Source: an uncultured Planctomycetia bacterium
GTDB lineage: Bacteria > Omnitrophota > Gorgyraeia > 2-02-FULL-51-18
Reading direction: 5' to 3'
Length of the DNA: 64,000 bases
Assembly: GCA_964606485.1 (NCBI GenBank)
Contig: CAZSGP010000001.1
Location: 417,085 to 481,084 of the forward strand
Shown here in pieces: positions 35,088 through 53,043 of the stretch. The notes beneath the pieces were generated by a model. The model was not told where the DNA came from. It made no database searches and saw only the letters and a program-made list of their open reading frames with translations. Position numbers and translations under genes: made by a program. Positions within the stretch are counted from its first letter, which is position 1. Every line of letters starts with the position of its first letter.

Positions 35088-35474
35088 TTACTTTTTAACG
35101 CTGTCGAGAGTCAGTTGAACCGATTGAATAACTTTTTTAGATTCAAAGGGTTTTGGAATGTAATCCGCAGCACCTAGCTTGATGGCTTCCTGAGCGATCT
35201 CCACGCTTTGATAACCGCTCACGATGATGACCGGAAGCGCAGGGCGCACCTTCTTGATCTGCTTTAAGATTTCAAGGCCGTGAAGTTTAGGCATTTTGAT
35301 ATCCAAGAGCATCACGTCAGGGGAGAAAGTCTTTAAAAGTTCAACGGCCTCAAGGCCATTGTGCGATAGGCGAATATTATAGAAGTCCGCCAAAATCAGC
35401 TTGAGCGACTCGCGAATACCTTCCTCGTCGTCGCAGATGAGAACCGTTTTCCTCGATGCATCATGGTTTGCCAT
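35088..35474 (-). CDS. Single-domain response regulator (CheY-like receiver)
   Basis: 128 aa. LICDDEEGIRESL with conserved Asp (MLLDIKMP), T/S (IIVSGY) and Lys (IPKPF). No output domain. No cognate kinase adjacent. Confidence 0.8.
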   Translation of the reverse strand: MANHDASRKTVLICDDEEGIRESLKLILADFYNIRLSHNGLEAVELLKTFSPDVMLLDIKMPKLHGLEILKQIKKVRPALPVIIVSGYQSVEIAQEAIKLGAADYIPKPFESKKVIQSVQLTLDSVKK

Positions 35475-38600: not shown

Positions 38601-41600
38601 GAGCAATCAAATTCAAAAGGTGTTGATCCATCCGCAAACGGGGACAGGGCAGTCTGTCCCAAGAAATGCGGGACAGACAGACCTGTCCCCGATGGGTCAT
38701 GAGCTTGAAATAACCTATCAATACGGCAAAATCCGGCAAATTAAAAAAGATAACGCGCTCACGTTTACGTATTCGTACACCTTTGAAAATGATAGGGAGC
38801 AGACTGTTATTCACGACTTGGAAGAAAACACGACGAAGACCTACGAAGAGAGCCTGCTTCAAAAAAGTTTCGACAACAACACCTCGGTGTTATCGAATTA
38901 TTCTTACGATTCTAATCAAAAGGTCTCTCAGGTTCTCGTCTCACGTCTTGGTCGCTCTCTTCACACCTACACTTACGCTTACAACGACAGGGCCACAGCC
39001 GATACCGCAGATGATTGGACGATTGTTACTGATGAAGCGGGTGTAATTCGGACCTACGGCCAAGCCCCCGTGACAAAAGTCACTCTCAAGAAAAAGGACG
39101 TCACCGACCCCAATGATTTGGATGCGAGCGGCAACCCCAGAGTCATCGGCCAAACGCTGGAAGAACAACCCCTGGAAATTCTCCCGCTCGAGAACAATAA
39201 GCTTCTCTCGATGGAAAAAGATCATAAGCTTTTTACTTATACCTACTCACTCAATGTTACCCAAGAAAAAGACGGCACGATTCTCGCCGGCAATTCTCAA
39301 GAATCTATTCAAGAGCGGCTCATCCAACAAACGCTCTCTGATGGATCTGTGGCGCATTACGACGAGTGGGGACAGATTCAAAATATCGTGTTGTCCAATG
39401 GGCTTACCCTGACAGATGTCGTGGTGGATCAAGCTCGTCAAATTCAAAGTGCGAAGGTGGTGGTTCCCGACGGACGGACACTCACCTTTAGCCAAGACCA
39501 TTTGCTAGAAGAAGTCACGCCGCAGAACGTGCATTATTCGTATCAAAACGGAAGACTGTCTCGCGTTGTCGATGAAAATGCACACGACTATTCTTTGGCT
39601 TATGATTTTTCATTGAGTGATCAGTTAAGCTCTATTCATTTAGATTTAGGAAATGAGGTTCTCAATTACAATTCTCAGGGACAAATTCAGTCGCTAGAGG
39701 TTGAAAATATTTTGACGCCTCAAGAAATTTTAGCGGGCCGCGTTAACACATCTTCCGGAGGAAACGGGGGAGATTGGGGCTACGATGGAAATTTCAACAC
39801 CGCCCAAACTGGAGGGCTTTACGTGGATCTTATTTCCACGCAAATGCTTCCGACTGCGAGCACGATCACCTCGCTTACCTATCGGCTTTTTGCGGACGCC
39901 AATTCCCAAGGCTCGCAAAACAACGGCAGTTCGGCTTACAGCTACATTCAAACACAGGACGCCACAACGCTTGCGTGGACCATAGTTCCGGGAAGCTTGC
40001 TGGTTGATAGTCACAACAACGGCGGTGGCGGCGGCTCCACCGCGCATGCGACGTCTGCGAATCCCGCCCAACTCAATGTGAATATTTCAAATGTCATTGC
40101 GGTGCGGGCTCTGACCGGGACCGCTGCGTACGCCAATAACGGCAGTGGTACGGCCGGCGGCTCCTCCGCTATTTATGAAGTCGAGCTTGGACTTGCGGAT
40201 TTATCGCAATTTCAATTTTCATCTTCAAGTCCAAATGGGCTTGTGTTTCAAAATTTATCCGGATCCCGAACTGTTTTAGGTTCTCAAAATATGGGCGTCC
40301 TGCCTTATTTTTCAAAAATTAACGAAGAGCTTCCAGCCGAACTCGCGTCATGGACGCAAAGTATCAAAAGCGCTCTCTTAGACACGAGCACGGTGACGAG
40401 TCAGGAATATTCCGCCGCGGGAATTTTACAAACTCAAACCAAAGCGGATCAGACCGTGACGCTTTTTAATGAGCACAACAAGCCCGTTCAGGTTTTGGAT
40501 AAAACCGGCAACACGCTGATGCAGTATCTTTACGACAATGACGGAAATCCCACGCGTGTGTATTTGAAAAACGCGCGCGATACGCTTCCGGACCAGATTC
40601 GCGCGGCAAGGGAAGCGATTGAAACTCAGAGAGCGTCCCAGCTTAAAATTCTCGCCCAGCAAAAAAATCTCGCTTACCAGACTATTTATGCGCAAGCCGA
40701 AACCCAGCGCCAGCTCCTAGGTTTTCAGATTCAAATGTTGGAAGATCAGGAAAATTATATCGAAAAAATTGAGGTTCAGGGATCTCAAGCCCGCTCTCAA
40801 AAAGCGGACGCTTTGTCTCAAATTCAAGACTCGCTCGACCACATCACCGGAGTGATCACGCAAATTTCTAGTTCAGAAGCGGATGCCTACGCAGGACTCA
40901 ATGCACAAGTCCAAACGCTTTCGAATCAAATTAATTTAGACGCCCAGCACGCATTTTCCGATCTCGATACCCAAGGACTGCTTCTTGAAAAAGAAATTCT
41001 GCGTCAGGAAGTGTCGCCCATTGTTTACGACGTCTATCGGCGGGTATTGGGCCGCGATCCAAATTCACAGGAATATGATGGTTGGATTAGTCAACTTAGC
41101 TACAGTCAAAATAATGGGCTCGCCGAGGCCAAAACACTTTCAGGGATCGGTTTAACACAGGCCATTGCAACGTCTCTGTCCAATTCGCAGGAACTAGCGG
41201 ATCGCCAAGCTTATGTTCAGGCTGTTCGCAGTGGCGTTTCGGCACAGATTCAACAATTCTTAAATCTTTCGGACGCTGGCAAGCTCGCTTTTGCCCAGAA
41301 CTTGGGACTGCCCGCGCAGGATTTAATTGCGCTTTCGCAAGCCGACGCTCAAAAAATAATGACATGGCTTAGCTCGCGCTCGCTTCACTTTGGGCAATCC
41401 GCGTTTTTGTCTTTGGAGTCATTGCTCGATCAAAATAATATTTCTTACAACCGTATCGACATTGCTCAGAAAGCCATCTTGATCGACATCTTGAGCGGCG
41501 TGATTTCTCCGCTCGATGATGGGGATCTTGTGATCTCTGTATTTGCACTCAATAAAGTTGCGGCGCTTTATGGATTGAATCTTTCCGGCGCTCGTCTTAC

Positions 41601-44415
41601 TTGGGACGACTTGCGCGTCATCCCGAGCGGTACTCGCATTATCGCCCACATTCTTGGAAACCACTATGTTGTAATCACAGGGATAACTCAGGATTCGATT
41701 ACCTATATCGATCCCGGTATTGGGGCCGATAAACAGAACGAAGTCGTAACCGTATCAAAAGCTGGCTTCCTGAAAGTTTGGAAGGGGAACGTTACCCTTG
41801 AACAATCTAAGCTACAAACCGTCGCCGGGTACCAGAACAAGGTCCTATCCGCCACACAGACCCAACAGATCAGAGGGGCCTTCTTTGGCAGTATTCTTGG
41901 CCTTATAGGCTCGATTCTAACGTGGGTCCCAGGCCTCAATGGCATTGGCATAGCGCTTACCGCAATCTCTGCTGCTGTATCCGCGATTGAAGGCGACTTC
42001 ATTTCAGCGATCTCATCCATTGTTACCCTCGGCATGGCCAATTTGGGTAGTTTCTTTCAGACGGCTTTTGATGGGGTAATAAAAGCCATGGGTCCCCTTG
42101 GCCAGGCATTCTCCAAGGTGGGGCAGGTGTTCGGAAGTATTTATAACGGTGTGGTCGGCTTTATCAATAGCGCCGTTGGATTCTTGCCCGGCATTGGCAC
42201 AGCGCTTCAAGGAGCCGCAGGTGCGTTGCACACCACCATTGGGAATGCGATAGTAAACACAGCCCTTTCTACAGGTCTCAATATCGGGGCGACCAAGGGG
42301 CTCACAGCTTTGGGCGTATCGCCCCAAATTGCTTCGTTCCTCGGTCAGCTAACCGCCGGTGCTGTGATCGGAGCCCTGCAACCCCAAACAATGGCGGGTG
42401 GGCACGTTGCTATTACCCAAGCGCAGAATATCCAAGCAGCTGTTCAGCAGACGATCATCTTAAACCAAGTCGGCCGTCTTGGCACAGAGCTTGGTCTTGA
42501 CCCATCTTTCACCAACATAATTGGACTGTCCCTTGGAGCAATTCAAGGCCAACTCATTACGAATCCCAGCGCCGATCCCTTGACTTATGCATTCTCCAAT
42601 ATAAAACCCGAGCTTTTTTCATCCCTGGCACAATACGGAATTCAAAAGCTGGGAACCTCTCTGGGCATAGACCCACGGCTGTCAACCCTGATCGGCTCGC
42701 CAATCAGCGCTGGAATTGGAACTGCTTTTGGGCAAGGCGTAACGGCAGGCACTCAAATAATCAATTCGATCAATGATGGTTTATTGCGAGGGGTTACTTC
42801 ACTGGGAATCGAATATGCTACGCAAAATGTTGATCCACTTCTTGGATCTTTGACTTCAAGGGCAGTAACAGGGGCTATTGAGGGAATGTTGGGTGGAAAT
42901 ATCTTTGATGGAATCTTCAGAGCATATTCGCAGTCAGTGCTTAATGTGGCAAGACTTGGTGTGTCGGGCTCTGATTCGTGGAGTCAGGCACAATATATTC
43001 AAAGAGCGACTAATTTCTCTACAATTGTTCAACAAAAAGGTTTGGCCCAAGCAATCGAAGACACAGCTACACAGGTAATGACTGAAGATTCAATCAGCTC
43101 TATTCTCAAATCTTTCCAGACCGTTGGGGCATTTATTCAAGACCAGATTCAGGGCAATAAACCACAATCGGTTCAGCAGGATGGGACTACATACAAGAAG
43201 GTCCTGCTGGCCAACGGTGATTATCAGATTTACACAGCTGACTACAAAGACCTTGTAGAAGTGAAAATGGGGAACACAATTCTTCGGGGAACATTTGGCA
43301 GGGACGAAACCGGGCTTCTTGGACTTAAGACGGGCACTATCTCAATCTATGATGCCAGCGGGAAACTACAGTCCAAAACGTATATTGAAAACGGCTGGAA
43401 TATCGAAGATGTCCATTATTCGGTTGACCCTCTTTCGGGGCAAGAGGCAGTTGACTTAACCGTTAAGCCAATTAAGGGCAAACTTGGTATTACCTTTGAT
43501 GAGTTTGGTAATTATCGAGACGCAGATCTTATAGGCAAAGACAACCAGTTCCATTTCTCGATCAATAGTGGCATTGCGACGTCGGCTCAGTATGGATTTC
43601 AATTTATGGCTGATAGCGACTTAACATGGCTAAGCCAACAAGGACTTGATTCGGCCAGCTTGAATAATCTTTTGTTCAACGAAACAGTTGATGCGACCGG
43701 AAACTATGCAACTTCTTTAAGGTGGGAAGCCAATAATTCCCTTATACCCGAAAATTGGGTTGATGCATTTAAATCGCCGGATTCTGCTGAGCGAATTATG
43801 AATGCGTTCCAAGGCTTCGGATTCAGGACTAATAGCGAAATTGCGCAACATTTTAGCAATGACGCCGAAATTCTTAAAACAGCTGCAAAAACTGGTACAA
43901 TAATTTCTGTTAGGGGGCGGACATTATCGGCAGCGGTAATAAAAACAGTAACGTCAGGCCCAGTCAATCATACAGCTACCTTGTATATTGATAACCAAGG
44001 TCAGCGTTGGGTATTTGAAGAATTGGGCCCATTGCCACAACAAGGTCTCCAAAAAGTTCGTCTCGATGATTGGCTCGCTCGATATCAGTCTGAGAAACCA
44101 GATATTAACATTGGAGGCTTAGATCAAGTGGGAGCCGATCAAGATATTAAACAGGCGATTGAACGTAGCTTCTTCTATTGGAATCGGGATGCGAACGGCA
44201 ACTGGACTATGACGGATGAGGTTATTCCAATGCCGTATAATACTGCAAACTTGATAGGGTTATCTTCCGGCGGCAATATTTGCAGTAGCCTGATCGTTGA
44301 ACTATATCGAGATAGCGGCCATCCTCTATTCGGCTTGACCGAAACGGACGTTCAACTTCAATATTCGCCAAATGATGTCTATAGACGTTTGAAATTACTA
44401 GGATATACGGATTAA
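35641..44415 (+). CDS. Giant secreted multidomain protein (2924 aa): YD/RHS-like repeats, coiled coil, degenerate C39-like peptidase domain, Gly/Ala-zipper hydrophobic segment, divergent C-terminal module
   Basis: Signal peptide MKKSKILMKVVAWVLVFSTFLQSGAWA. Recurring YD-type repeat motifs (TYTYSDTE, FTYSYTF, FTYTYSL, VHYSYQNGRL, YSLAYDF). Gly-rich low-complexity stretches (NNGGGGGSTAHAT). ~150-aa coiled coil (aa ~1550-1700). C39-like block HYVVITGI...ITYIDPGIG...FLKVWKGNV with no Cys at the expected nucleophile position. ~450-aa Gly/Ala-rich amphipathic region (GAFFGSILGLIGSIL...). C-terminal Cys/His motif GGNICSSLIVELYRDSGHP. The track ORF starts at 35587; ATG 35641 is preferred. Confidence 0.85.
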   Translation: MKKSKILMKVVAWVLVFSTFLQSGAWALTPRELLDQAKASFGFMSEDHHQGGGLSAAGLATTQSQAQSAVDQQNVLQDLQGMNFSLTTQNGDTLSYVQNTLSQITRPDGTTLNNISQDSSGNITGANLLLSDGTVQVLQGGSILGSQSPDGAQVFYDLQTGKIQRTVSASGEETTYTYSDTETLLENIHFQTVYDTDQKLKKIVDKSSGKQSFFQDGRLQRIVLADHSEILYNSAAQGNQIKVSLGAYKDASGNLYTFDASGLVTRIESSVGVRYGSLIWGVDQKIKDAEITFSNGSRGVYQSQKLVRLTDSSGQITNFTYTADRIVAASSGVSSEYQLDGTLVKSTDSVGGQSFYFTSGLHKGYKEREVDTAGNIFVYEYSANNTVERKQILRSEQTVTTFAGQSTLLARNNPFLGFEVSFNQDTDTQGVTLQSQGSYPPLQIKLIPGQDAQCTIGSSPAQLLGVRIEKSATYKVEIKLSQANAKIFIYKSGTPIPQTPTKIIQQRDWNARFNLQATNARLVLDSRSSGVYRTAVETSDRQAVYRTGAVVERVDFRIDPNTQNRPSISLNAEQKDAANHRRSFSMEYSSGKWRIQAYGGGPRSQSFTVNQNLQAGVDYVAELRFENNALNFYVYPSAQARPASPTATLSALSNAGARFSSSLDKAQGTAQVFYNLQSVSLQSVKGKALPQEMDPVRNDPNFWLVQPAQSVLEAASPAKMILYGQTGQMERVEKWDGSKFIFTNGALSQMLDPQGNITQLSVNSSDLGNILGATIEQSGAESHYNAEGKLETVRVGDITVHYKRQDSSASPQNDGGIDYLEKSDGTEIHDIVFGGQGEIQNASVYLTDGRIKFYENGHLVKSVEADRSQIFFVNDQATQMITPQDLHYDFNYMPGQIEAVLNVGSVIPAQAGISVDPRFRADDTVVRMVYDSNFNLQSMVRQNNEIINFSGNHIQSILTPSQLPQTVVQLAEGYKVLQDNTETFYDSSNQIQKVLIHPQTGTGQSVPRNAGQTDLSPMGHELEITYQYGKIRQIKKDNALTFTYSYTFENDREQTVIHDLEENTTKTYEESLLQKSFDNNTSVLSNYSYDSNQKVSQVLVSRLGRSLHTYTYAYNDRATADTADDWTIVTDEAGVIRTYGQAPVTKVTLKKKDVTDPNDLDASGNPRVIGQTLEEQPLEILPLENNKLLSMEKDHKLFTYTYSLNVTQEKDGTILAGNSQESIQERLIQQTLSDGSVAHYDEWGQIQNIVLSNGLTLTDVVVDQARQIQSAKVVVPDGRTLTFSQDHLLEEVTPQNVHYSYQNGRLSRVVDENAHDYSLAYDFSLSDQLSSIHLDLGNEVLNYNSQGQIQSLEVENILTPQEILAGRVNTSSGGNGGDWGYDGNFNTAQTGGLYVDLISTQMLPTASTITSLTYRLFADANSQGSQNNGSSAYSYIQTQDATTLAWTIVPGSLLVDSHNNGGGGGSTAHATSANPAQLNVNISNVIAVRALTGTAAYANNGSGTAGGSSAIYEVELGLADLSQFQFSSSSPNGLVFQNLSGSRTVLGSQNMGVLPYFSKINEELPAELASWTQSIKSALLDTSTVTSQEYSAAGILQTQTKADQTVTLFNEHNKPVQVLDKTGNTLMQYLYDNDGNPTRVYLKNARDTLPDQIRAAREAIETQRASQLKILAQQKNLAYQTIYAQAETQRQLLGFQIQMLEDQENYIEKIEVQGSQARSQKADALSQIQDSLDHITGVITQISSSEADAYAGLNAQVQTLSNQINLDAQHAFSDLDTQGLLLEKEILRQEVSPIVYDVYRRVLGRDPNSQEYDGWISQLSYSQNNGLAEAKTLSGIGLTQAIATSLSNSQELADRQAYVQAVRSGVSAQIQQFLNLSDAGKLAFAQNLGLPAQDLIALSQADAQKIMTWLSSRSLHFGQSAFLSLESLLDQNNISYNRIDIAQKAILIDILSGVISPLDDGDLVISVFALNKVAALYGLNLSGARLTWDDLRVIPSGTRIIAHILGNHYVVITGITQDSITYIDPGIGADKQNEVVTVSKAGFLKVWKGNVTLEQSKLQTVAGYQNKVLSATQTQQIRGAFFGSILGLIGSILTWVPGLNGIGIALTAISAAVSAIEGDFISAISSIVTLGMANLGSFFQTAFDGVIKAMGPLGQAFSKVGQVFGSIYNGVVGFINSAVGFLPGIGTALQGAAGALHTTIGNAIVNTALSTGLNIGATKGLTALGVSPQIASFLGQLTAGAVIGALQPQTMAGGHVAITQAQNIQAAVQQTIILNQVGRLGTELGLDPSFTNIIGLSLGAIQGQLITNPSADPLTYAFSNIKPELFSSLAQYGIQKLGTSLGIDPRLSTLIGSPISAGIGTAFGQGVTAGTQIINSINDGLLRGVTSLGIEYATQNVDPLLGSLTSRAVTGAIEGMLGGNIFDGIFRAYSQSVLNVARLGVSGSDSWSQAQYIQRATNFSTIVQQKGLAQAIEDTATQVMTEDSISSILKSFQTVGAFIQDQIQGNKPQSVQQDGTTYKKVLLANGDYQIYTADYKDLVEVKMGNTILRGTFGRDETGLLGLKTGTISIYDASGKLQSKTYIENGWNIEDVHYSVDPLSGQEAVDLTVKPIKGKLGITFDEFGNYRDADLIGKDNQFHFSINSGIATSAQYGFQFMADSDLTWLSQQGLDSASLNNLLFNETVDATGNYATSLRWEANNSLIPENWVDAFKSPDSAERIMNAFQGFGFRTNSEIAQHFSNDAEILKTAAKTGTIISVRGRTLSAAVIKTVTSGPVNHTATLYIDNQGQRWVFEELGPLPQQGLQKVRLDDWLARYQSEKPDINIGGLDQVGADQDIKQAIERSFFYWNRDANGNWTMTDEVIPMPYNTANLIGLSSGGNICSSLIVELYRDSGHPLFGLTETDVQLQYSPNDVYRRLKLLGYTD

Positions 44416-44819
44416 TGAAGAAAATACACGCTGGCTTGCCTTACGTAATATCGTTAATATATGTTTTCCTTGGCGTTGTTATTTATGATTGGACCACGCA
44501 CATGGCCCCGGCGCTGGACGGAAGAGGGCAAGCTAGAACTATTTTTCTAGAAACATTTTTAATATGTCTCGGCTTAATTATTTTTGTCACAACGTTTATC
44601 GAGCGAAGGAAAAATATTAGCCAGTTATTTTGGTCTTTTTTATTCTTTTCGGGGTTGACCATACTTGTGGTTGTCGGCTTCATAGTGTCACTGGCTGATA
44701 GATCAGCAAATTCAACCCTATTGAAGAATTACTGGGAATATTTGTGGGTATCAGTTATTCTTTACTTGCCAGCAGTACTTTTGTATCTTTTGAAGATTAA
44801 GAGGCCCGTTAACTCATAA
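44415..44819 (+). CDS. Small 4-TM membrane protein, translationally coupled (TAATG) to the giant gene; candidate immunity/partner protein
   Basis: 134 aa, four hydrophobic helices. The start overlaps the giant gene stop by 1 nt. Confidence 0.5.
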   Translation: MKKIHAGLPYVISLIYVFLGVVIYDWTTHMAPALDGRGQARTIFLETFLICLGLIIFVTTFIERRKNISQLFWSFLFFSGLTILVVVGFIVSLADRSANSTLLKNYWEYLWVSVILYLPAVLLYLLKIKRPVNS

Positions 44820-45175
44820 TGAGAACAATATTAACCCCCATTTTGCTTCTGTTGTTTTTTAGCGTAGGCGTCATTGCAAACGCAAGCGATGCTCTTGTTC
44901 AGGAAGGGAAAAAGGCCATCGAAAATGGTCGTTACGAGGAAGCTGTTAATGACGTTGGTCAGATTTTAGATAAGTCAGACAACGTTTCGCGTGATCCTGA
45001 AGTATTGAGTTTGCATAAGGCCATCCAAGCATATGGTATGATTCGGTTAAATGATCACGGTTATGATAAAGAAATCGAACAAAATTTAACAGGTGCAATT
45101 AGCCTTGATCCAAATTGGGAGTATCCAAAAAAATTATTGGAAGAATTTCGAATTTCCAAGGACCATAAAATTTAG
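44819..45175 (+). CDS. Small secreted protein (TPR-like helix pair), translationally coupled (TAATG)
   Basis: 118 aa. Signal peptide MRTILTPILLLLFFSVGVIANA. Confidence 0.45.
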   Translation: MRTILTPILLLLFFSVGVIANASDALVQEGKKAIENGRYEEAVNDVGQILDKSDNVSRDPEVLSLHKAIQAYGMIRLNDHGYDKEIEQNLTGAISLDPNWEYPKKLLEEFRISKDHKI

Positions 45176-45187
45176 AAATTTATCTGC

Positions 45188-45397
45188 ATGAACGACCACG
45201 AAACCGTCCTCACCAAGCAGTTACGATCCCAGCTTATTGAAGAGCGTCGGGATCTCGAAGCCGAATACTTCAGGCGGATGCCTCTAAACCAGAAAATCCA
45301 CTCTTTTGCCTTCGCCATAGTCTTTGTAGGCGGCATCTTTTTCGGGGTGGGGCTGATCGGATTCATCCTGTATAAGCTGATTTTTCGCCATCCCTGA
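45188..45397 (+). CDS. Hypothetical small protein with a C-terminal TM helix
   Basis: 69 aa, FAFAIVFVGGIFFGVGLIGFILY. Preferred over the antisense ORF 45172-45441. Confidence 0.3.
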   Translation: MNDHETVLTKQLRSQLIEERRDLEAEYFRRMPLNQKIHSFAFAIVFVGGIFFGVGLIGFILYKLIFRHP

Positions 45398-45616
45398 AGA
45401 GCCGCAATAAAAATATTTTTCCAGCCGGAATTTCGCGGCAATTCGTAATTTTATCCAAAGTAAGCGCAATTAAGCGATAAAACGTGAAGATACACTACGA
45501 GCCATCAAAAGCATTTTTTATATGGCTAAAGAAGTTAAAGATTTTTAAGAAGTGCTCTTGTAAGCGGGTCATTCATATGCCAGACTTTTTCCGTGGTAGG
45601 ATTGGAGGTCTGAGCA

Positions 45617-45862
45617 ATGAAGATAGTGGTCCATTTGAATCACGGCGTTGATAAGAGTTACTTGCTGGTATTCGGCAAAAACTCCATCACCAGAGATCAA
45701 GTTCGCCAAATCATCAATCAAAACGACGATATTTCGGCGAAGCAGCTTATTTTTAAATCCGGCGAGAGGTATGAGCTCAACCCTTCAGAAGCACGCCGAG
45801 CAGAAATGGTTGCCGATTTTGTGGTGAGCCAGCACGGTTACAGTGCTGAACGTTTAGCATAA
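45617..45862 (+). CDS. Hypothetical protein
   Basis: 81 aa. GGAGG RBS 8 nt upstream. Followed by the terminator at 45890-45923. Confidence 0.4.
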   Translation: MKIVVHLNHGVDKSYLLVFGKNSITRDQVRQIINQNDDISAKQLIFKSGERYELNPSEARRAEMVADFVVSQHGYSAERLA

Positions 45863-45889
45863 GTTAGTCAGCAATCTCCAAGTAAAAGT

Positions 45890-45923
45890 CGAAGCGTTTT
45901 GGCGCTTCGGCTTTTTTGTTTTT
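45890..45923 (+). terminator. Rho-independent terminator
   Basis: CGAAGCG-ttttgg-CGCTTCG then CTTTTTTGTTTTT. Confidence 0.6.
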
Positions 45924-46034
45924 ATCAGATAAGCCCATCCAGAATAGTCCGTGACAAATCTCTTTTCCCTCTGTTATTATTAGGTATCAGTTTCGGATAA
46001 TTACGGTTATCAACGGAAAAGGGCGATTAATAAA

Positions 46035-46241
46035 ATGACCACAGATATCATGTCTTTGCCAGAGGTCTGCGAATACCTAAAGCTGACCAAAAGCACTGTT
46101 TATAAGCTTTCGCAAAGAGGGGATTTGCCGTCTTCGCGCATTGGAAGACAACTGCGTTTTCGGAAGTCCAGGGTAGATTCTTGGCTCGATTCAAGAGAAA
46201 TTCAGAAAGCAAAGAAAGCGAAGAAATCAGCAAGACGTTAA
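46035..46241 (+). CDS. Excisionase/AlpA-family helix-turn-helix DNA-binding protein (HTH_17-like)
   Basis: 68 aa. LPEVCEYLKLTKSTVYKLSQRGDLPSSRIGRQLRFRKSRVDSWL. Resembles the protein at 56478-56672. Confidence 0.7.
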   Translation: MTTDIMSLPEVCEYLKLTKSTVYKLSQRGDLPSSRIGRQLRFRKSRVDSWLDSREIQKAKKAKKSARR

Positions 46242-46270
46242 ACGGCGGCTGCATGTAGCGACGGAGATTC

Positions 46271-47218
46271 ATGGAGAAGCAAGACTACATACACACAAGC
46301 AAGAGTGGGCATAAAATCAATATTGTTTCATTGGTCCCCAATGAACCGAAACGGATTTTACTTATCCCGCCTTTGGTTGGAGCAACCGGGACACTTGCTA
46401 TTAGGACTTTTCGCTATTTTTTTCGTGAAAATGGTTACTTAATGTCATTCCAGTATTGCGGGCATTCCGATCAGCTTCACAATCAATTTACAATTACAGG
46501 CACTTTCGTAGATACCAAAGAGGCAATATTGCACGCGATTGAAACGGGAAGAAAACTGGAGATCCCGGTTCACGTGGTAGGCGCTTGTTATGGCTTAATC
46601 CCTTTAATCTGCGTTCTTCATGAATTGAAATGGCCCCGTGAAGTAAAGTCATTATTTAGCGTGGGTGGGTTATTCAGTATGCACGAGCTCATTAATTTTG
46701 ACGGATATAGCCCCTATCTGAAGAAACGCGGAATCACATTCAAAAATAAGACTGAATTCATCGAATACATGAAAACAGAAAAATCAACTTTTGTAAAAAA
46801 CAAAAAAATTTACACTGAGGCATTGACAGAGTATTTGATCTCCATTTTTGATGAATTAAAAGATGTCATTTCGTATGAAAGCTTCGGAGTGATGCAGTAT
46901 TCAAACGTCGATTTTTATAAAGCATTTTATGAATTTATAACCATCGACTTGCCGAAGGTCACGATACCCAGCTATTTTCCTTGTTTATTTTTCACCGGCG
47001 TCGAAGATCACGTATTGAAGTTGGAGACGGCGACCGGAAATAGCGTTTACACCAAAAAAATTACCGCAATGGCCCCGCACGCTCAATTCCGCAACATTAA
47101 GATTGACCACTTTGGCAGAGGTGAAGACCATTATGTAATAGGGGAAGATGGGATGAAGTTTCTATTAAAAAATGAAAAGCTGAATGTCCTCGAGGGAGTG
47201 CGCGATGGCAATTCATAA
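46271..47218 (+). CDS. Hypothetical protein, possible alpha/beta-hydrolase fold with a Cys nucleophile elbow (G-A-C-Y-G)
   Basis: 315 aa. RILLIPPLVGATG...VHVVGACYGLIP. Weak call. Confidence 0.4.
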   Translation: MEKQDYIHTSKSGHKINIVSLVPNEPKRILLIPPLVGATGTLAIRTFRYFFRENGYLMSFQYCGHSDQLHNQFTITGTFVDTKEAILHAIETGRKLEIPVHVVGACYGLIPLICVLHELKWPREVKSLFSVGGLFSMHELINFDGYSPYLKKRGITFKNKTEFIEYMKTEKSTFVKNKKIYTEALTEYLISIFDELKDVISYESFGVMQYSNVDFYKAFYEFITIDLPKVTIPSYFPCLFFTGVEDHVLKLETATGNSVYTKKITAMAPHAQFRNIKIDHFGRGEDHYVIGEDGMKFLLKNEKLNVLEGVRDGNS

Positions 47219-48101
47219 TAGAATTTCAACACAAGACCTTGAAGCCAAAAGGTGGCCATATTATCTCATTTACCCCATGACATCGCTTTTGGTTCTGTGG
47301 GCTGTCCTTAAGAAGAAACTCTATGGGTTATTCCGGCCAAGGAAGGAAGTCAATTTTCTGCTTTTTGATGGAATTGGCAAATATGGCAAAGTTATCAAAC
47401 GAAATGTGACTGGCTGGAGAGCGGTCGATTTGATTTATAACCACCGTTTTGGCGAGACGAAATCGATTGGTGGCCGCCTTGATGATTTTTGGTTTGATAG
47501 TCTCAATTGTCAGGCTGCAAGAAACCGCTTCAAATTAGCAAAGAGGGAGCTGGAGAAGGCGATATTGAATACACCAGCCTCTGAAGTAAGAGTGCTTTCA
47601 TTGGCATCTGGGACCGGACAAATCGAAAGCGAAACGTTGGCAAATGTAAGAGATAAAAACGTAAACGTCAAAGCAGTCCTCATCGACCGTGAGGCTGAAG
47701 CGCTCGAACGAGCAGAACACTTTATTTCGTCAAACGGAGTTTCCGAAAGCATTAAGTTAATCAATTCAGACGTGATGCAGGCGATCGAAATTGCAAAAGA
47801 ATTTAATCCGCATATCATTCAAATGGTGGCGTTCTTGGATTATCTGCAAGAACAGGAGGCAATTGATTTCTTGTCGGATATCTATGGCACTCTCCCGGAG
47901 GGAGGGTATTTTATCGCGTCAAATACGATGCCAAATCTTGAAATGCATTTTGTAAAAGAGGTGGTTGGCTGGCCCCTGATATACAGGAACCATGAAGAGA
48001 TAGGGCGTATATTTGAAAAAAGCGGCTTCAAAAATGCCCAAATTATTGACGAACCTTTAGGTATTCAAAATATGATAGTCGCTAAAAAGCAGGCTGGGTA
48101 G
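47205..48101 (+). CDS. Class I SAM-dependent methyltransferase
   Basis: VLSLASGTGQIE (motif I, GxGxG-like), acidic residue after beta2 (LIDRE), LINSDVM. The ATG at 47205 overlaps the upstream stop. Confidence 0.55.
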   Translation: MAIHNRISTQDLEAKRWPYYLIYPMTSLLVLWAVLKKKLYGLFRPRKEVNFLLFDGIGKYGKVIKRNVTGWRAVDLIYNHRFGETKSIGGRLDDFWFDSLNCQAARNRFKLAKRELEKAILNTPASEVRVLSLASGTGQIESETLANVRDKNVNVKAVLIDREAEALERAEHFISSNGVSESIKLINSDVMQAIEIAKEFNPHIIQMVAFLDYLQEQEAIDFLSDIYGTLPEGGYFIASNTMPNLEMHFVKEVVGWPLIYRNHEEIGRIFEKSGFKNAQIIDEPLGIQNMIVAKKQAG

Positions 48102-48109
48102 CCCGCCGG

Positions 48110-50350
48110 ATGAAATTTCTATTTATAAACTTTGTCATTGTTTTATGGATCACATCCCTCACCGCTTTTCTGCTTGGAATTTTTGCCTGGATAAGAAGAC
48201 GTAATACCGTCAACAAATGCTTTGCGCTCTACTGCTTCAGTATTTCATGGTGGAGCTTCTGCGAAATCTGGGGTATTTCCTGCAATTCGGAATCCACGGC
48301 TCTTCTTTGGACCCGCATTGAACAGATAGGCGTATTTTTTATTCCCACCTTTTTTGTCCATTTCGTCATATCGCTATTGAACATAAAAGACAAAAAATGG
48401 CTGCTTAAAACTGCATATATTTTCAGCTCAATTGCCGCTGCACTTTGCTTTACGCCGCTAATGATGGCCGGATCTGCTCCGATATCGGCAGCGCCCTACG
48501 TCAAACGCTTTGGTGTCCCAGGCGTTGCTTATCACTTTGCTATTTTATTCTTTCTAATCTTGATTGTGTATGGACTGAACGAACTATTTAAGGCATATCT
48601 TACTTCGCGGGGCGCGAGAAGGAACCAGCTGAAATATTTATTTTTTAGCACGCTTTTTGGATATCTTGGCGGCGGCGCAAACTTTTTATTGGTTTATAAC
48701 GTCAGCATTCCATTCCTTAATCCCTTTGGCACATATGCACTTCCAATTTATATAGCCGTTGTTACATATGCCATCGTCAAGTACCGGTTGATGGACATTA
48801 GAATTGCGGCGATAAGGACCGTAGTATTTGTCGGAGTATATGTCCCGGTTTTATTCTTGCCATTTATCGGTGGATTCATTTTAAAAAGCAAACTTGCTGC
48901 ATTAGCAGGAGAAAACTGGTGGATCATTCCTGCTATTGGATCAAGCATTTTGGCCCCTCTCGGAATATATATCTTTTTAAATATAAAAAATCGCGCCGAA
49001 GCGATGCTGCTGAAGGAGCAGAGGCAATATCAAGACACACTGTTGGGAATTTCAAAGAGCATGACGTATGAGCGCAACCTTGCGATTCTCCTTCAAAAGA
49101 TTGTTCAAGGCGTCGCTGATTCACTTAAATTAAACGCTGTTCATCTGTTTTTGGTGGATAAGGAAACGGGCCGCTATTTGCTAAAAGCATCGCATCCGAA
49201 GAGTTTATTATCAGAGCCAATGGCTTTTGAGACTGATGATCCTCTAATCAAGAAGCTGCTTAATGAAAAATCGTCAATTGTTATAGAAGAGGATCATATT
49301 CATTCAAAAACCGGCGCCGGTGAGGGAGATGGGCTTAAGCTGATGGAAGAAAAGAGCGGCATGAAAATTGCTTTAGCGACGCCCTCATTTGCTCAAAATG
49401 AACTCATCGCATTTTTGCTGCTCGGTGATAAGCCAAATGGGCATATGTATACCCAAGACGATCTGAATGTCTTTTCAGTGCTTGCGACCCAAGCTGCGCT
49501 TGCGATTGAAAATGCTATTTTTTATGAGGAGCAGGGAAAATCCCTGGCGCAGGAACTTCAAGAGCACAAGCTGAAATATTTAGGCAACATGGCTTCAAAT
49601 ATCAGCCACGATGTAAATAACCGGTTTAATAGCGTGGCGCTCGAAGCTTTTGAAATTATCGACCAAATCATGCCAGCTTTGAAACAAAAACTTGGAGCTA
49701 CTTCAATTCCGGACGGACTAAATGAATTGATCGAACGTATTTTGCAGAATCTCGACAAGATTTCCCACCATGCCCAAGCGGGCGGAGAAACCGTTGAAAG
49801 ATTTCGCCGCCGCTCTCGTCAGGCAAAAATCGAGCCCCTTGATTTGGCTGCTGTTATAGAGAGCACATTGTCGATCGTTGTTTATCCAAAAGAAAAAGCC
49901 GGTGAGATTGTCAAAGTAATCCCAAGAGAAGTGTATGGTTTAGAAGTAGATCTGCCAACGGGGTTCCCGAAACTTTCTGCAGAAGTTTTTTCTCTTGAAA
50001 ACACAATTGCCAATCTACTTAGAAACGCCTATGAAGCTCAGCAAAAAAGAAGAGAAATTATTGGGCGAGATGGATATAGCCCGTTTGTAAAAATTTCAGC
50101 GCAGGTTCTTGGTGACACAGCTGACATAAAAATTGCGGATAATGGGATAGGTATGACGCCAGACCAGCTAAATCAGATTTTTGTGCCGTTTTATACAACG
50201 AAAGTTAAAGGCACGGGCCTTGGACTCTCTATTTTGAAATCGATGATTGAGCTGCAACGCGGGAAAATTTCCGTTGACTCGGAATATGGAAAAGGAACAA
50301 CATTCACCATTACATTGCCAGTCGCAAAAGAAGGGAGTGAGAATGCCTAG
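48110..50350 (+). CDS. Sensor histidine kinase: N-terminal 7-TM sensor, GAF domain, HisKA/HATPase
   Basis: 746 aa. ~7 hydrophobic helices in aa 1-290. GAF-like middle (LLGDKPNG...ALAIENA). H-box NISHDVNNRFNSV. G-boxes DNGIGM and GTGLGLS. Confidence 0.85.
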   Translation: MKFLFINFVIVLWITSLTAFLLGIFAWIRRRNTVNKCFALYCFSISWWSFCEIWGISCNSESTALLWTRIEQIGVFFIPTFFVHFVISLLNIKDKKWLLKTAYIFSSIAAALCFTPLMMAGSAPISAAPYVKRFGVPGVAYHFAILFFLILIVYGLNELFKAYLTSRGARRNQLKYLFFSTLFGYLGGGANFLLVYNVSIPFLNPFGTYALPIYIAVVTYAIVKYRLMDIRIAAIRTVVFVGVYVPVLFLPFIGGFILKSKLAALAGENWWIIPAIGSSILAPLGIYIFLNIKNRAEAMLLKEQRQYQDTLLGISKSMTYERNLAILLQKIVQGVADSLKLNAVHLFLVDKETGRYLLKASHPKSLLSEPMAFETDDPLIKKLLNEKSSIVIEEDHIHSKTGAGEGDGLKLMEEKSGMKIALATPSFAQNELIAFLLLGDKPNGHMYTQDDLNVFSVLATQAALAIENAIFYEEQGKSLAQELQEHKLKYLGNMASNISHDVNNRFNSVALEAFEIIDQIMPALKQKLGATSIPDGLNELIERILQNLDKISHHAQAGGETVERFRRRSRQAKIEPLDLAAVIESTLSIVVYPKEKAGEIVKVIPREVYGLEVDLPTGFPKLSAEVFSLENTIANLLRNAYEAQQKRREIIGRDGYSPFVKISAQVLGDTADIKIADNGIGMTPDQLNQIFVPFYTTKVKGTGLGLSILKSMIELQRGKISVDSEYGKGTTFTITLPVAKEGSENA

Positions 50351-50705
50351 GACGTTATTAGTTATTGATGACGAAGTCGAAATGACGCGTATTTTAGTAG
50401 GCACATTTAGCAATCGCGGTTATACCGTCTTTGAAGCCAATTCCGGACACGATGCCATCTCTATTTTAGAGAAGAACCACATTGATGCCGTGACATTGGA
50501 TCTTAATATGCCGGGGATGGATGGAATTGCCGTTGCCGCAGAGATGAATAAGCGTTTCCCCAAGGTAAAGATTATCGTCGTCTCAGGCTTCGGTGGGGAA
50601 TATGACGAAGAACTTAAAACCGTCAAAGTCGACGCTCACATTCCAAAGCCGATTAACATGACGGCCTTACTCAAAAAAATTCCTGAATTGCTGGATGGAA
50701 AATAA
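50343..50705 (+). CDS. Single-domain response regulator receiver
   Basis: LLVIDDE...LDLNMPGMDG...IIVVSGFG...KPI. The start overlaps the kinase stop by 8 nt. Confidence 0.8.
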   Translation: MPRTLLVIDDEVEMTRILVGTFSNRGYTVFEANSGHDAISILEKNHIDAVTLDLNMPGMDGIAVAAEMNKRFPKVKIIVVSGFGGEYDEELKTVKVDAHIPKPINMTALLKKIPELLDGK

Positions 50706-51300
50706 GTCCAGAAGCGTGAAAAGTTCATCAAGAACTCAATTGGCAAGCACCGCTTACCATGAGGCGGCTCATGCAGTCGCGCGGCATTGTCTTGGCATCA
50801 AAATTAAAAAAGTAACAATTGTTCCGCACGATGATTGCTTAGGAAGTGTTTCGGGTCCGAGCGCGACCGGTAAACATCAATTGGACGTTGATAATTCAAA
50901 TCAGGCGCGACTAAAAGCTGAACGTGATGTTATGGTCTCACTTGCAGGAGGCATAGCCCAAAGGAAGTTTAGTCCGAAAAACTTCAGGCACGATCATTGC
51001 AGCCAAGACCTTCATCAAGCCATGGATATATTGAGTTATTTCGCAGGGTCGCATGACGAATTGAATGCCTACCATAGTTATTTGAGTAAGCGAACAGAGA
51101 ACCTGCTTAGTAAGCCAATGGTATGGACAATGATACAGGCTGTGGCAAAAGAACTTCTATTCCGCCAGACCCTGACAGGTGCTCAGGTTAAGGAGATTAT
51201 ATTTAACGCATTTCCTGATCTTAAAGCTTTTTCAGATCGCTCCAAGGTTTCAGCAAAGTCAAAAACTTTGACCAAGCGAGGATTTAAGAGTAACATTTAG
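50695..51300 (+). CDS. Standalone FtsH-like (M41) zinc metallopeptidase domain, no AAA ATPase
   Basis: 201 aa. AYHEAAHAVARH (HExxH), then KVTIVPHDDCLG and LAGGIAQRKF, colinear with the FtsH protease domain (YHEAGHA...KVTIIPRG...LGGRAAEE). Confidence 0.55.
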   Translation: MENKSRSVKSSSRTQLASTAYHEAAHAVARHCLGIKIKKVTIVPHDDCLGSVSGPSATGKHQLDVDNSNQARLKAERDVMVSLAGGIAQRKFSPKNFRHDHCSQDLHQAMDILSYFAGSHDELNAYHSYLSKRTENLLSKPMVWTMIQAVAKELLFRQTLTGAQVKEIIFNAFPDLKAFSDRSKVSAKSKTLTKRGFKSNI

Positions 51301-51401
51301 CTAACGACATACTGAAGCAGTCCCAAGGCTGTTTTTTAGCCACTGATAGAAATGTGAGCAACATTCTATCGGTGGCTTTTTCTTTTTTGGAGGCCTTTTG
51401 G

Positions 51402-52409
51402 ATGAGGATGTTTAAGGCGTTGTTGCCATATTACGGTGGGAAGAGAAAGCTTTGCCCAATAATCTTTAGTCACATCTCAAAGTATCTTCCAAGGGATAAA
51501 TGGGCGGGAGCGGTATTTGTGGACGCTTTTTTAGGAAGTGGGGCGGTCAGTCTCTATGCCAAGGCTCAGGGTTTTCAGATCTACGCTAATGACATCGCCG
51601 AGCGAAGCTATATTGCTGGGCAATCACTTATTGAAAATAACAACATAGTGCTCACCGACAATGATCTCCATCGATTATGTCGTCCTAATGGCGATGTAAC
51701 GCCATTTATTCAGGAACATTTTTCTCCCGACGTCTTTACCTCAAAACATGCTGCATTTCTAGACGGTGCTTTTTCGAACGCCAAGAAACCACTCGATAAG
51801 TATTTACTCTTGAAATACATCTTCGCCATTAGACCCTATTCTAAATTCAGTTCACCCAATGCGTTTAATCGGCCAATGGAAGAGGGCCGCTTTGATGAAA
51901 TTAAATCCACGTACACAAAACACATCAAGGACAATCTGAAATCACCACTATCTATTTTAAAAAACGAAATGCGGAATGTAAATCTTGGCATATTTTCCAA
52001 TGGACTAAACAACTGGATAGCCAAGAAAGACGTATTTGAGTTTCTTGATGATGCCGAAGGGGATGTTCTTTACCTCGACCCTCCTTACGCCGGGACACTT
52101 GCTTACGAGAACGAGTATGAAGTGCTCGACAAGATATTAGGGCAGAACGAGAACCCTAAAAGTGATTTCTCCAGTGGGATGGATGCGCTGGGTAGGCTTT
52201 TAGCAGAGTGCGAGAAGTATCCGCTGTGGGTCATCAGTTTCGGAAACGCTGGTGGAAAGAACGAATTAAACGAACTATTGGGTATCGTCAGTAAATACCG
52301 TAAATGCGAAGCCCATGAGTTTCATTATCGGCACTGCGCGGCAGTAGCCTCGGAAGCGCACAAACAAAAATCAAGGGAGTGGCTCATTCTTGGAAATCAC
52401 ACAAGTTAG
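51402..52409 (+). CDS. DNA N6-adenine methyltransferase, D12 (Dam) class
   Basis: LPYYGGKRKL (Dam N-terminal motif), FVDAFLGSGAV (motif I), LYLDPPY (motif IV). Start placed at the ATG at 51402; the track ORF begins at 51354. Confidence 0.8.
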   Translation: MRMFKALLPYYGGKRKLCPIIFSHISKYLPRDKWAGAVFVDAFLGSGAVSLYAKAQGFQIYANDIAERSYIAGQSLIENNNIVLTDNDLHRLCRPNGDVTPFIQEHFSPDVFTSKHAAFLDGAFSNAKKPLDKYLLLKYIFAIRPYSKFSSPNAFNRPMEEGRFDEIKSTYTKHIKDNLKSPLSILKNEMRNVNLGIFSNGLNNWIAKKDVFEFLDDAEGDVLYLDPPYAGTLAYENEYEVLDKILGQNENPKSDFSSGMDALGRLLAECEKYPLWVISFGNAGGKNELNELLGIVSKYRKCEAHEFHYRHCAAVASEAHKQKSREWLILGNHTS

Positions 52410-53043
52410 AATAGACAAAATACACCCAAACAAATACAACCCGAATGTTGTACCAGCCGACATCATTGCCAAATTACGGGCAGAAATTGGCCAGAAAGGG
52501 CTCTGTGAGCCCATCATGGTGCGCTTCAGCCCCAATGGCTACGAAATTGTAAATGGCGAGCACAGGTGGCGGATTTGCCGGGATTTGGGCTGGCGGGAGA
52601 TCCCGTGCATTATTCAGGACTATGACGACAACGAAGCTAAAATAAAGACTTTGCAACTCAACTACATGCACGGGTCGGTCATCCCGGTCAGACTCGCATC
52701 GCTTATCCATGATTTGAGCAAAGAGATAAAACTCGAGGATTTGGCAAAGCGCCTTCCGTATGAAGAACTCCATTTGATGGACCAGTTGGAGCTCTTGAAG
52801 CTGCCGGAAGATTTTGGAAGCGCGCTCGAGGATAGAGCCAAGAAAGACGATGAAGAAATGCCTTCCGTCGTTTCTTTCGTACTTTATAAGAGTCAACTTC
52901 AAGTGCTTGAAGAAGCAATCCGGGCTATAGCCGAAGTCATACCAAAGGGTACGAAAAATACGAAAGCCGTCGCGCTTGAAGCGATTTGCTCATATTTCCT
53001 TGAGACCAAAGGGCTTAAGCAAGATTTGGAGTCGGCAACCTAA
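52390..53043 (+). CDS. ParB-like nuclease domain protein (ParB/Srx fold)
   Basis: GYEIVNGEHRWRICRDLGW is the ParB N-terminal domain GxxR motif. Common phage-encoded partner of Dam-type methylases. Confidence 0.7.
   Translation: MEITQVRIDKIHPNKYNPNVVPADIIAKLRAEIGQKGLCEPIMVRFSPNGYEIVNGEHRWRICRDLGWREIPCIIQDYDDNEAKIKTLQLNYMHGSVIPVRLASLIHDLSKEIKLEDLAKRLPYEELHLMDQLELLKLPEDFGSALEDRAKKDDEEMPSVVSFVLYKSQLQVLEEAIRAIAEVIPKGTKNTKAVALEAICSYFLETKGLKQDLESAT

Follow-up and report, generated by a model that had tools for sequence, protein, structure and literature searches.

The window analysed here is a stretch of 64,000 nucleotides (nt) from an uncultured bacterium of the phylum Omnitrophota (contig CAZSGP010000001.1, positions 417,085 to 481,084). 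It contains a giant gene, an open reading frame (ORF) of 2942 amino acids (aa), which is directly followed by two small genes (Table 1). A previous interpretation made from the letters alone, in the following called the sequence-only reading, had described the last part of the giant gene as an AT-rich, swapped C-terminal module followed by a gene for a small membrane protein, a layout known from polymorphic toxins and their immunity proteins. The comparison with related loci supported this proposal. We consider it likely that the tail of the giant gene is a toxin/immunity cassette and that the giant protein is a polymorphic toxin exported via the Sec pathway.

Table 1. Features of the giant gene, of the genes following it and of the surrounding DNA (positions within the window).
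Feature	Position (nt)	Strand	Evidence
Giant gene, ORF of 2942 aa	35587..44415	+	ORF list
Peptidase C39-like domain, aa 1984-2070	41536..41796	+	Pfam PF03412, E 2e-07, 31.3 bits (cut-off 22)
29-nt site CACTATGTTGTAATCACAGGGATAACTCA at the C39 His codon	41662..41690	+	identity to recombinase-fragment junction in relatives
Gly/Ala/Ile-rich, moderately hydrophobic region, aa 2090-2355	41854..42651	+	hydropathy, amino-acid composition
Conserved pre-toxin module, aa 2356-2590	42652..43356	+	alignment A3, 56-88% identity
Low-GC island, best of the 64-kb window	42,751-52,050		two-boundary likelihood scan, GC 0.422 inside and 0.482 outside
Mosaic linker, aa 2591-2715	43357..43731	+	ends of alignability of relatives
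Predicted toxin domain at the C-terminus, aa 2716-2942, with a papain-like NlpC/P60 fold in permuted form, type YiiX/YaeF (Peptidase_C92)	43732..44412	+	profile, model, fold match
134-aa protein with four transmembrane segments, prime immunity candidate	44415..44819	+	ORF list, hydropathy; start overlaps stop of giant gene (TAATG)
118-aa secreted, all-helical TPR-like protein, second companion (co-immunity or accessory)	44819..45175	+	ORF list, hydropathy; start overlaps preceding stop (TAATG)
81-aa ORF (45617-45862), function unassigned, and terminator-like hairpin	45617..45925	+	independent gene call

Translation of the giant gene probably starts at M19 (nt 35641), since the alignments of orthologous giant proteins begin at aa 21-23 and the protein has a length of 2924 aa in a gene call made independently on this sequence. 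This start would be followed by a putative Sec-type signal peptide (MKKSKILMKVVAWVLVFSTFLQSGAWA-L), and the hydropathy profile shows a hydrophobic, signal-like segment at aa 24-46 ending AWA-L, in agreement with the N-terminal trafficking signal expected of polymorphic toxins. In the giant protein the RHS_repeat family was only matched below threshold (17.6-18 bits compared to the Pfam cut-off of 22), while it passed the cut-off in the orthologue of locus L001 (32 bits) and in protein P0022 (69 bits). This indicates that the stalk is probably a divergent YD-type region.

Among all parts of the giant protein, the C39-like domain was the best conserved one, with an identity of 58-78% in nine full-length relatives and 38% in L010, compared to about 40% over the whole protein; the higher identity extends more broadly over aa 1916-2075. 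Of the PF03412 model, only positions 46-126 are matched. The relatives have retained the His motif NHYVVITG, and in an alignment by eye to the C39 consensus, the position of the catalytic Cys appears as Ser (HFGQSAF) in all of them, so that the domain may be a Ser-nucleophile variant or non-catalytic. In L003, the orthologous giant ORF (about position 9233) stops approximately 50 codons past the His motif while the homology continues in the same frame, which could be an in-frame stop or a sequencing error. The following Gly/Ala/Ile-rich region (15% Gly, 12% Ala) showed no Pfam match. It comprises two segments in aa 2099-2134 that are strong enough for membrane helices according to hydropathy, and a role in membrane insertion or translocation is possible. 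The genes secA and lnt are located upstream of the giant gene.

Both small genes start within the preceding stop codon, and the two TAATG junctions (GATTAATGAAG and TCATAATGAGA) named in the sequence-only reading are real. Its description of one four-transmembrane (4-TM) and one secreted product agrees with the hydropathy profiles. Four hydrophobic 19-mers were found in the 134-aa protein; its first loop carries an invariant DW..HM.P motif and is one of two loops predicted to be periplasmic by the positive-inside rule. For the 118-aa protein, one signal-like N-terminal segment ending ANA-S was determined from hydropathy. Its AlphaFold2 model reached a predicted local distance difference test score (pLDDT) of 86.7 and comprises five helices including the signal-like one, with TPR domains as the best fold matches. 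The family of this protein comprises 41 homologous clusters. Searches of Pfam, NCBIfam and PDB sequences with either small protein alone yielded nothing significant. A third small AT-rich gene had been proposed as well and did not withstand the analysis: the candidate ORFs 45172..45441 on the minus strand and 45188..45397 on the plus strand have no homologues and are absent from the independent gene call.

The compositional break within the giant gene was determined from the GC content at third codon positions (GC3). A single change-point was located at codon 2374 (nt 42,709; 2-log-unit support interval 42,457-42,814), with a GC3 of 0.500 to the left and 0.387 to the right. Its log-likelihood ratio of 11.67 was not reached by any of 5000 codon permutations (largest value 10.86). 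The left edge of the AT-rich part, estimated by eye at about 42.8 kb, had thus been placed correctly, and the profile is not flat. The step itself is of modest size, amounting to about 6 points of GC and 11 points of GC3. A different codon choice in the 3' part was also confirmed, based on shuffling of synonymous codons only: the comparison of both sides of nt 42,652 gave a G of 111.6, while the null distribution was 44.2 +/- 9.5 with a maximum of 83.1 (0 of 2000 shuffles), and control blocks of the same size within the 5' part gave G values of 33-89. From the 5' to the 3' part, the share of CCC among Pro codons dropped from 0.48 to 0.06, that of CCA rose from 0.14 to 0.69, and CGC among Arg codons dropped from 0.37 to 0.00. 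Among 45 tabulated ORF segments, the three lowest GC3 values were those of the gene for the secreted protein (0.345), the cassette part of the giant gene (0.396) and the gene for the 4-TM protein (0.422). An intragenic drop of GC3 towards the 3' end was found in all seven related giant genes tested, with L019 as the extreme case (from 0.70 to 0.44). The right limit of the AT-rich tract, previously set at about 45.4 kb, could not be maintained, as the low-GC tract reaches 52,050. The support intervals of its borders are 42,701-43,451, inside the giant gene, and 52,000-52,450.

The support interval of the change-point includes the 5' edge of the pre-toxin module (nt 42,652). This module has no Pfam family and is common to the giant proteins, to short signal-peptide toxins on mobile elements and to 3' gene fragments. 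At the 5' edge of the mosaic linker or within it, the relatives cease to be alignable to the protein of the window, at aa 2571-2587, 2661-2681 or about 2715 depending on the relative. A search with the last 538 aa returned two proteins with the same end (P0001 with 78% and P0002 with 53% identity), while seven further matches share only the first 170-270 residues and then diverge. As judged from these alignments and from the fragments described below, no single break delimits the exchangeable unit; its boundaries are nested and lie at aa 2026, ~2356 and ~2570-2680.

The comparison of orthologous giant genes, which the sequence-only reading had called for, revealed alternative C-terminal cassettes: the last 220 aa of 23 related proteins fall into 14 groups without BLAST similarity to each other. 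Four genome loci and fourteen metagenome loci confirmed this picture; the related loci originate from metagenome-assembled genomes of Omnitrophota, those of L002-L004 being labelled Omnitrophica. Across 18 loci, 13 groups were distinguished for the first downstream gene, and wherever two loci share a tail group, they also share the group of this gene. The downstream genes therefore change with the tail, and the opposite outcome of one C-terminus with the same following genes in all homologues was not observed. In the paralogous cassette P0008, the tail is matched by Pfam Ntox10 (E 2.6e-19) and the next gene, overlapping by 4 nt, encodes Imm27, which is the primary pairing catalogued for polymorphic toxins (PMC3482391). 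By eye, other tails comprise Gly-zipper-like ends (L016, L021, L022) and GxSxG hydrolase-like ends (L001, L010). Two possible links to known families were discarded: a weak match of the pre-toxin region to the CdiA-type DUF637 in P0003 was not reproduced in nine relatives, and a weak PT-TG match in P0006 lies below the Pfam cut-off.

The locus L010 (1-4823) shows a classic toxin array. The tail of its full-length relative resembles a hydrolase with a GHSAG motif, the next gene encodes a two-helix membrane protein of 81 aa, and immediately behind this gene an orphan C92-type cassette with its own companions is located.

To assign the tail of the window to a family, homologues had to be combined into a profile. 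When the last 283 aa were used for a full HMMER scan against 1.84 billion representatives, 16 proteins only were retrieved, including the C-terminal ends of P0021 (4076 aa) and P0022 (2734 aa, with RHS repeats and C39). Three of the homologues (P0016, P0017, P0019) passed the Peptidase_C92 cut-off of Pfam (27) with 31-38 bits. The profile built from the window and 12 homologues (alignment A2, 13 sequences) matched the PDB entries 3kw0 (E 1.3e-14) and 2if6, which is YiiX (E 5.7e-08). Both His2795 (motif NHTA; nt 43969-43971) and Cys2899 (motif ICS; nt 44281-44283) are invariant in the 13 sequences. The AlphaFold2 model of the domain showed a pLDDT of 89.4 and a predicted template modelling score (pTM) of 0.86, and the six top Foldseek matches were 2if6 and 3kw0 (probability 1.00, TM-score 0.45-0.56), which were also the only significant fold matches. 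Altogether, the domain combines a significant profile match to the C92 family, the order of His before Cys with conservation of both, and a papain-like fold.

Permuted NlpC/P60 enzymes act on acyl linkages of lipids, and one of them, Tox-Act1, a type VI secretion system (T6SS) effector, is a phospholipase that is toxic in the periplasm only and against which an immunity protein comprising two membrane helices gives protection (PMC12994826). Based on this acyl activity and the precedent of Tox-Act1, the tail could be a hydrolase directed against envelope lipids or lipoproteins; by analogy, we give a lipid-directed activity an even chance.

The order of toxin, membrane protein and secreted protein was observed in the window, in L005/L013/L014, L006/L023/L028, L010, L029 and L030, and partially in L012, which corresponds to at least five further independent loci and one partial one. 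The secreted protein takes the third position, after a C92-type toxin and a membrane protein, in the three further contexts looked up, in addition to L005, L006 and L010. Toxins of the subtype found in the window are followed by members of the 134-137-aa membrane protein family (L005, L006, L029 and the partial L012), and toxins of the P0016 subtype by a separate 156-aa multi-pass family (L010, L030). By profile comparison, no homology of the 156-aa protein of L010 to the 4-TM family of the window was detected (hhalign probability 0.2%), and each is regarded as a family of its own. The secreted protein occurs with either toxin subtype, and its copy in L029 groups with those of L010 and L030 (62-74% identity). 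Since the membrane-protein subfamily follows the toxin subtype while the secreted protein does not, the membrane protein is favoured as the specificity-matched partner. From these comparisons it appears reasonably likely that the 4-TM protein is the immunity factor, and the distribution of the secreted TPR-like protein favours a role as a more generic partner.

The start points of cassette fragments in relatives are found at few, fixed codons. In L005/L014 and in L007/L024/L025, 3' fragments of the giant gene start exactly at aa 2026, directly after a tyrosine-recombinase trio and phage-tail-like genes. In L005 (position 5893) and L014, the fragments abut the recombinase trio of a phage-like element at the sequence of the 29-nt site listed in Table 1, the first 28 nt of which are identical in the window, L003 and L005; the junction of L007 (7980), with a trio of 341, 109 and 297 aa, lies at the same position. 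The junction in L005 is flanked by an inverted repeat (TGTGATTA...TAATCACA), and the contig of L014 is listed in IMG/VR (UViG_3300027815_000126). The contigs are too short to hold the far (attL) end of the phage-like element. Judging by this identity, the site in the window looks like an unoccupied attachment site. A further boundary at aa 2269 is given by the fragment of L006/L023/L028, located after a primase-like gene, an integrase gene and an integrase-methyltransferase gene. The boundary at aa 2356 (nt 42,652) is the point at which short toxins begin to resemble the giant gene.

Such short toxins, carrying the same pre-toxin module, were found on circular elements. L018 (9,410 nt with a terminal overlap of 123 nt, about 9.3 kb) and L031 (9,886 nt with an overlap of 127 nt, about 9.8 kb; L026 is a circular permutation of it) each encode a DnaG-type primase-helicase, two tyrosine recombinases, a signal-peptide toxin (699 or 782 aa) and a small downstream gene. 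L031 additionally encodes a MazE/PIN pair. A stretch of 3,254 nt in L018 shows 100% identity to the chromosome of L019, where it forms the 3' end of a full-length giant gene. It begins at the equivalent of nt 42,652 and spans the toxin from this boundary on, two ORFs downstream of it and about 90 codons at the start of a response-regulator gene. The L019 copy of the latter gene is truncated, with a Y1-transposase gene behind it; this arrangement argues for an element-like donor of the chromosomal cassette. Together with the fragments at aa 2026, 2269 and 2356, the short complete versions on circles represent the stand-alone and truncated cassettes known from polymorphic toxins.

Y1-type (IS200-like) transposase genes were observed downstream of the toxin-immunity module in ten loci (L009, L010, L013, L015, L019, L020, L021, L023, L024, L025). 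The distance was about 0.2-1.3 kb in most of them and ~3.6 kb in L023, while in L019 the gene starts right where the element-identical segment ends.

As a tentative explanation for these junctions, dedicated mobile elements, either circular with a primase and paired tyrosine recombinases or phage-like, might re-arm the giant toxins of Omnitrophota by docking at the fixed codons at 41,662 and 42,652. In the relatives, elements of both kinds carry a 3' toxin cassette and the immunity gene belonging to it immediately next to their recombinases. If this somewhat speculative idea is correct, docking would swap or displace the toxic tip and bring the matching immunity in one step. The window would then comprise an unoccupied site at 41,662 and an old junction at ~42.7 kb, which we likewise regard as possible rather than probable.

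Altogether, every feature of polymorphic toxins that can be computed appears to be present at the locus or in its relatives. The proposed protein would consist of a constant stalk of approximately 2,000 N-terminal residues with weak YD/RHS-like repeats and a coiled-coil region, followed by the conserved C39-like domain and the Gly/Ala-rich hydrophobic region. The last ~590 residues would form the exchangeable cassette, comprising the pre-toxin module, the mosaic linker and the YiiX/C92 domain with a presumed dyad of His2795 and Cys2899. After delivery, the toxin domain would most likely act from the periplasmic side of the target cell and cleave an acyl bond, either ester or amide, in a lipid or lipoprotein of the envelope, by analogy with related enzymes. 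The products of the two translationally coupled downstream genes would protect the producer, with the 4-TM protein in the inner membrane serving as immunity factor matched to the toxin and the secreted TPR-like protein in a more generic role. The compositional break could be explained as the join of cassette DNA, originating from a lower-GC pool shared among genomes and mobile elements, to the resident gene.

Several observations weigh against parts of this proposal. With the C-terminal 538 aa of the window alone, searches of Pfam, NCBIfam and PDB sequences gave nothing significant, and the literature treats the YiiX clade as belonging to lipid metabolism and not to conflict systems or toxins (PMC12994826). 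The correlations of toxin and companion distances in a mirror-tree style comparison were positive and not significant (rho 0.43 and 0.42, p about 0.11). Within the window itself, neither a second or orphan cassette nor a Y1 transposase was found, and no recombinase lies adjacent to the giant gene; a search of the window for recombinases of the element type only returned a single Xer-like integrase (55328-56242) with 25-31% identity to them. In addition, the low-GC tract runs about 7 kb beyond the cassette, so that the break could be the edge of a larger island and not of the cassette. Finally, the window and L005 are collinear at ~71% DNA identity over nt 41,660-44,422, and the GC content of L005 falls at about the equivalent position (1-kb bins). 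The step would therefore be old and internal to a larger shared unit rather than the result of a recent acquisition. From this comparison, the seam is best described as an old, inherited feature of the cassette pool that bears no mark of recent acquisition in this genome.

Concerning the origin of the break, it could be assumed that it marks the left border of a single acquired or hypervariable island of ~9.3 kb (42,751-52,050) that happens to begin inside a gene, which would make the cassette a by-product. We consider this unlikely, even though the best two-boundary model for the whole window is exactly this tract. Among its genes is one of the excisionase-type HTH_17 family, for which the closest relative (75% aa identity) was found in L022, immediately downstream of another toxin cassette. 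Most of the D12 methylase gene is also part of the tract, and low GC was likewise observed downstream of the L006 and L007 cassettes. On the other hand, the island has no recombinase inside, and no direct or inverted repeats of at least 11 nt joining its two borders were found. HisKA_7TM kinase and response-regulator genes, which are part of it, are regular neighbours of giant genes and lie upstream in L002 and L003 and downstream in L006 and L007, and the intragenic GC3 drop also occurs in relatives with quite different downstream content. An island of this kind would moreover be compatible with a toxin/immunity function and not opposed to it. A further explanation, by which the step is a by-product of protein composition or local constraint with the Gly/Ala-rich region raising the GC content upstream of it, is largely refuted and very improbable. 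It could draw on the Gly and Ala content of aa 2090-2355, with its high GC at codon positions 1 and 2, and on the control block directly upstream of the cassette (40,870-42,651), which is somewhat atypical in codon usage too (G = 88.8). However, the step is present at third positions and in the synonymous-only shuffle, the GC3 to its right lies below that of the whole 5' 7 kb and not just below that of the Gly-rich block, and the genes that follow are low in GC as well. The step of L019 lies at the junction with the 100% identical element-borne sequence.

The roles of the two companions could also be reversed. The real neutraliser would then be the secreted TPR-like protein, either by itself or jointly with the membrane protein, and the 4-TM protein would have an accessory function such as exporting or retaining the toxin end. 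Toxins with hydrolase activity in the periplasm are often accompanied by soluble periplasmic immunity proteins. In addition, the secreted protein is the better conserved companion and occurs with both toxin subtypes, its 41 clusters compared to the 16 representatives of the toxin domain might fit orphan immunity genes, and small TPR proteins follow other cassettes as well (L001, L006). This reversal of roles nevertheless seems doubtful to us: L029 combines a toxin and a membrane protein of the window type with a secreted protein close to those of L010 and L030, so that the secreted protein does not track toxin specificity, whereas a change of toxin subtype is always accompanied by a change of the membrane-protein family. 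Tox-Act1, the analogue that was studied by experiment, also has a membrane immunity protein (PMC12994826). It is unlikely, too, that the C-terminal hydrolase is no toxin against competitors and instead the working end of an attachment or predation organelle directed at prey or host cells, as would fit the lifestyle proposed for Omnitrophota, with the different tails reflecting adaptation to prey and the companions guarding the cell's own envelope. Giant proteins of Omnitrophota have been proposed to serve in cell-wall degradation by predatory bacteria (bioRxiv 10.1101/2023.11.21.568195); the very long exported N-terminal region and the several alternative tails that appear envelope-directed by eye (the Gly-zipper and GxSxG ends mentioned above) would agree with this. 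Against it, tight co-variation of toxin and immunity genes together with orphan cassettes is a hallmark of conflict between relatives, and Ntox10/Imm27 is an established polymorphic-toxin pair, although the data do not separate a prey target from a kin target.

The toxin/immunity cassette proposed here is most similar in layout to the Sec-exported RHS/YD polymorphic toxins described by Zhang, Aravind and co-workers in 2012 (PMC3482391), for example those with the Ntox10-Imm27 pair in Bacteroidetes and Verrucomicrobia. Shared features are a long, secreted, repeat-rich stalk protein, a conserved pre-toxin region followed by many alternative C-terminal toxin domains, a cognate small gene directly downstream, and stand-alone or 5'-truncated cassettes elsewhere, one paralogous cassette being Ntox10 and Imm27 itself. 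Unlike the Rhs toxins, the giant protein lacks the autoproteolysis motif PxxxxDPxGL at which the core ends, as DP.GL does not occur anywhere in it, and with RHS_repeat below threshold it does not classify as an Rhs/YD protein. The pre-toxin region differs by its lack of a Pfam family and by the C39-like domain and Gly-rich hydrophobic region preceding it, and two conserved companions are found instead of one. The tail is of the YiiX/C92 kind, and its name YaeF, the only one checked (YiiX and C92 were not searched), is absent from the text of that study. An assignment to CdiA or two-partner secretion proteins is likewise not indicated, as Pfam gave no hits to a two-partner secretion domain or FHA repeats and no VENN motif was found.

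With Tox-Act1/Imm-Act1 and TseH (PMC12994826), the toxin domain shares the circularly permuted papain-like core with His before Cys, and the periplasmic phospholipase activity and membrane-embedded immunity protein of Tox-Act1 resemble what is proposed here. In contrast to Tox-Act1, the domain of the window belongs to the YiiX/3kw0 clade, and no T6SS genes were seen among the ORFs scanned (the ORFs located at 1-30 kb of the window and most small ORFs were not scanned). While the immunity protein of Tox-Act1 comprises two membrane helices, the protein in the window has four and is joined by a secreted TPR-like protein. YiiX of E. coli (2if6) and the permuted NlpC/P60 peptidase of B. cereus (3kw0) have the same fold at 15-22% identity and the same His and Cys motifs (NHTA and ICS in the window, HTG and CSE in these proteins); both are small stand-alone proteins, whereas the domain described here is the tip of an exported protein of ~2,900 aa beside immunity-like genes.

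The fragments in the relatives resemble the orphan cassette arrays of Rhs and CdiA and the recombinase-associated orphan immunity islands (PMC3150448) in their 5'-truncated toxin genes with immunity genes, in a shared upstream homology block that could allow tail replacement and, in some cases, in nearby tyrosine recombinases. The rAID systems of Bacteroidales, cited in PMC12247911, are an example of such islands. Unlike in these arrays, the fragments abut recombinase pairs or trios at the fixed codons aa 2026, 2269 and 2356, complete short signal-peptide versions exist on small circular primase-encoding elements, and the window has no orphan array. Very long C39-type proteins of the same phylum with PF03412 were described in two preprints (bioRxiv 10.64898/2026.06.07.730766 and 10.1101/2023.11.21.568195), the former listing a PF03412 architecture cluster of 24 proteins. 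Neither contains the word "polymorphic", and "immunity" is absent from one and occurs in the other only in a journal name in the reference list; the toxin/immunity interpretation, the cassette polymorphism and the link to mobile elements thus appear not to be described there. While the logic of polymorphic toxin and immunity is known, the C39-like giant host class of Omnitrophota, the proposed YiiX/C92 toxin branch and the two-gene companion module appear to be new. The association with small circular primase-recombinase elements, as it appears from the sequences of the relatives, is unusual.

Downstream of the companions, the 81-aa ORF is not AT-rich (GC 0.45) and has no homologues in related loci. 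It is followed by a strong terminator-like hairpin (45884-45915) with a T-run, and a promoter-like site precedes the next gene, so that the transcription unit probably ends near 45.9 kb. Past the cassette, the low-GC island comprises the HTH_17 gene (46035-46241) with its own promoter-like site, a 315-aa ORF (46271-47218) without Pfam or NCBIfam match that overlaps the next gene, a methyltransferase gene, by 35 nt, the genes of a HisKA_7TM histidine kinase and a response regulator, and most of the D12 DNA methylase gene (51354..52409). L020, L023 and L024 also have relatives of the HTH_17 gene in their flanks, which are weaker and lie at a distance of about 7.4-8.3 kb downstream from the toxin. 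Genes of the HisKA_7TM kinase and response-regulator type lie at 48110-50705 and, on the minus strand, at 35088-35474 in the window, and they were also found beside the giant genes of L002, L003, L006, L007, L015 and L019, upstream in some genomes and downstream in others; they may represent a dedicated two-component control. Further downstream, the run of DNA-modification and mobile-type genes at 51354-60992 (D12 adenine methylase, a ParB_N-domain protein, two unknowns, the Xer-like integrase, a methylase of the C5 cytosine type and a helicase of the SNF2 family) might represent a defence island. At the beginning of the window, tRNA-Met and tRNA-Val (63-247) and the bacterial class A RNase P RNA (1386-1688, 202 bits) are encoded.

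For the Omnitrophota, a phylum with almost no cultured members whose giant genes have so far mainly been discussed as attachment or cell-wall-degrading devices, the proposed cassette would provide a concrete function for one architecture class of very long proteins. It also suggests that the YiiX/C92 branch, which is usually filed under lipid metabolism, serves as a weapon as well, and it offers a candidate two-protein protection module consisting of the 4-TM and the secreted TPR-like protein. Furthermore, the related loci point to small circular recombinase elements as vehicles of toxin tips, which would explain the compositional seam inside such genes.

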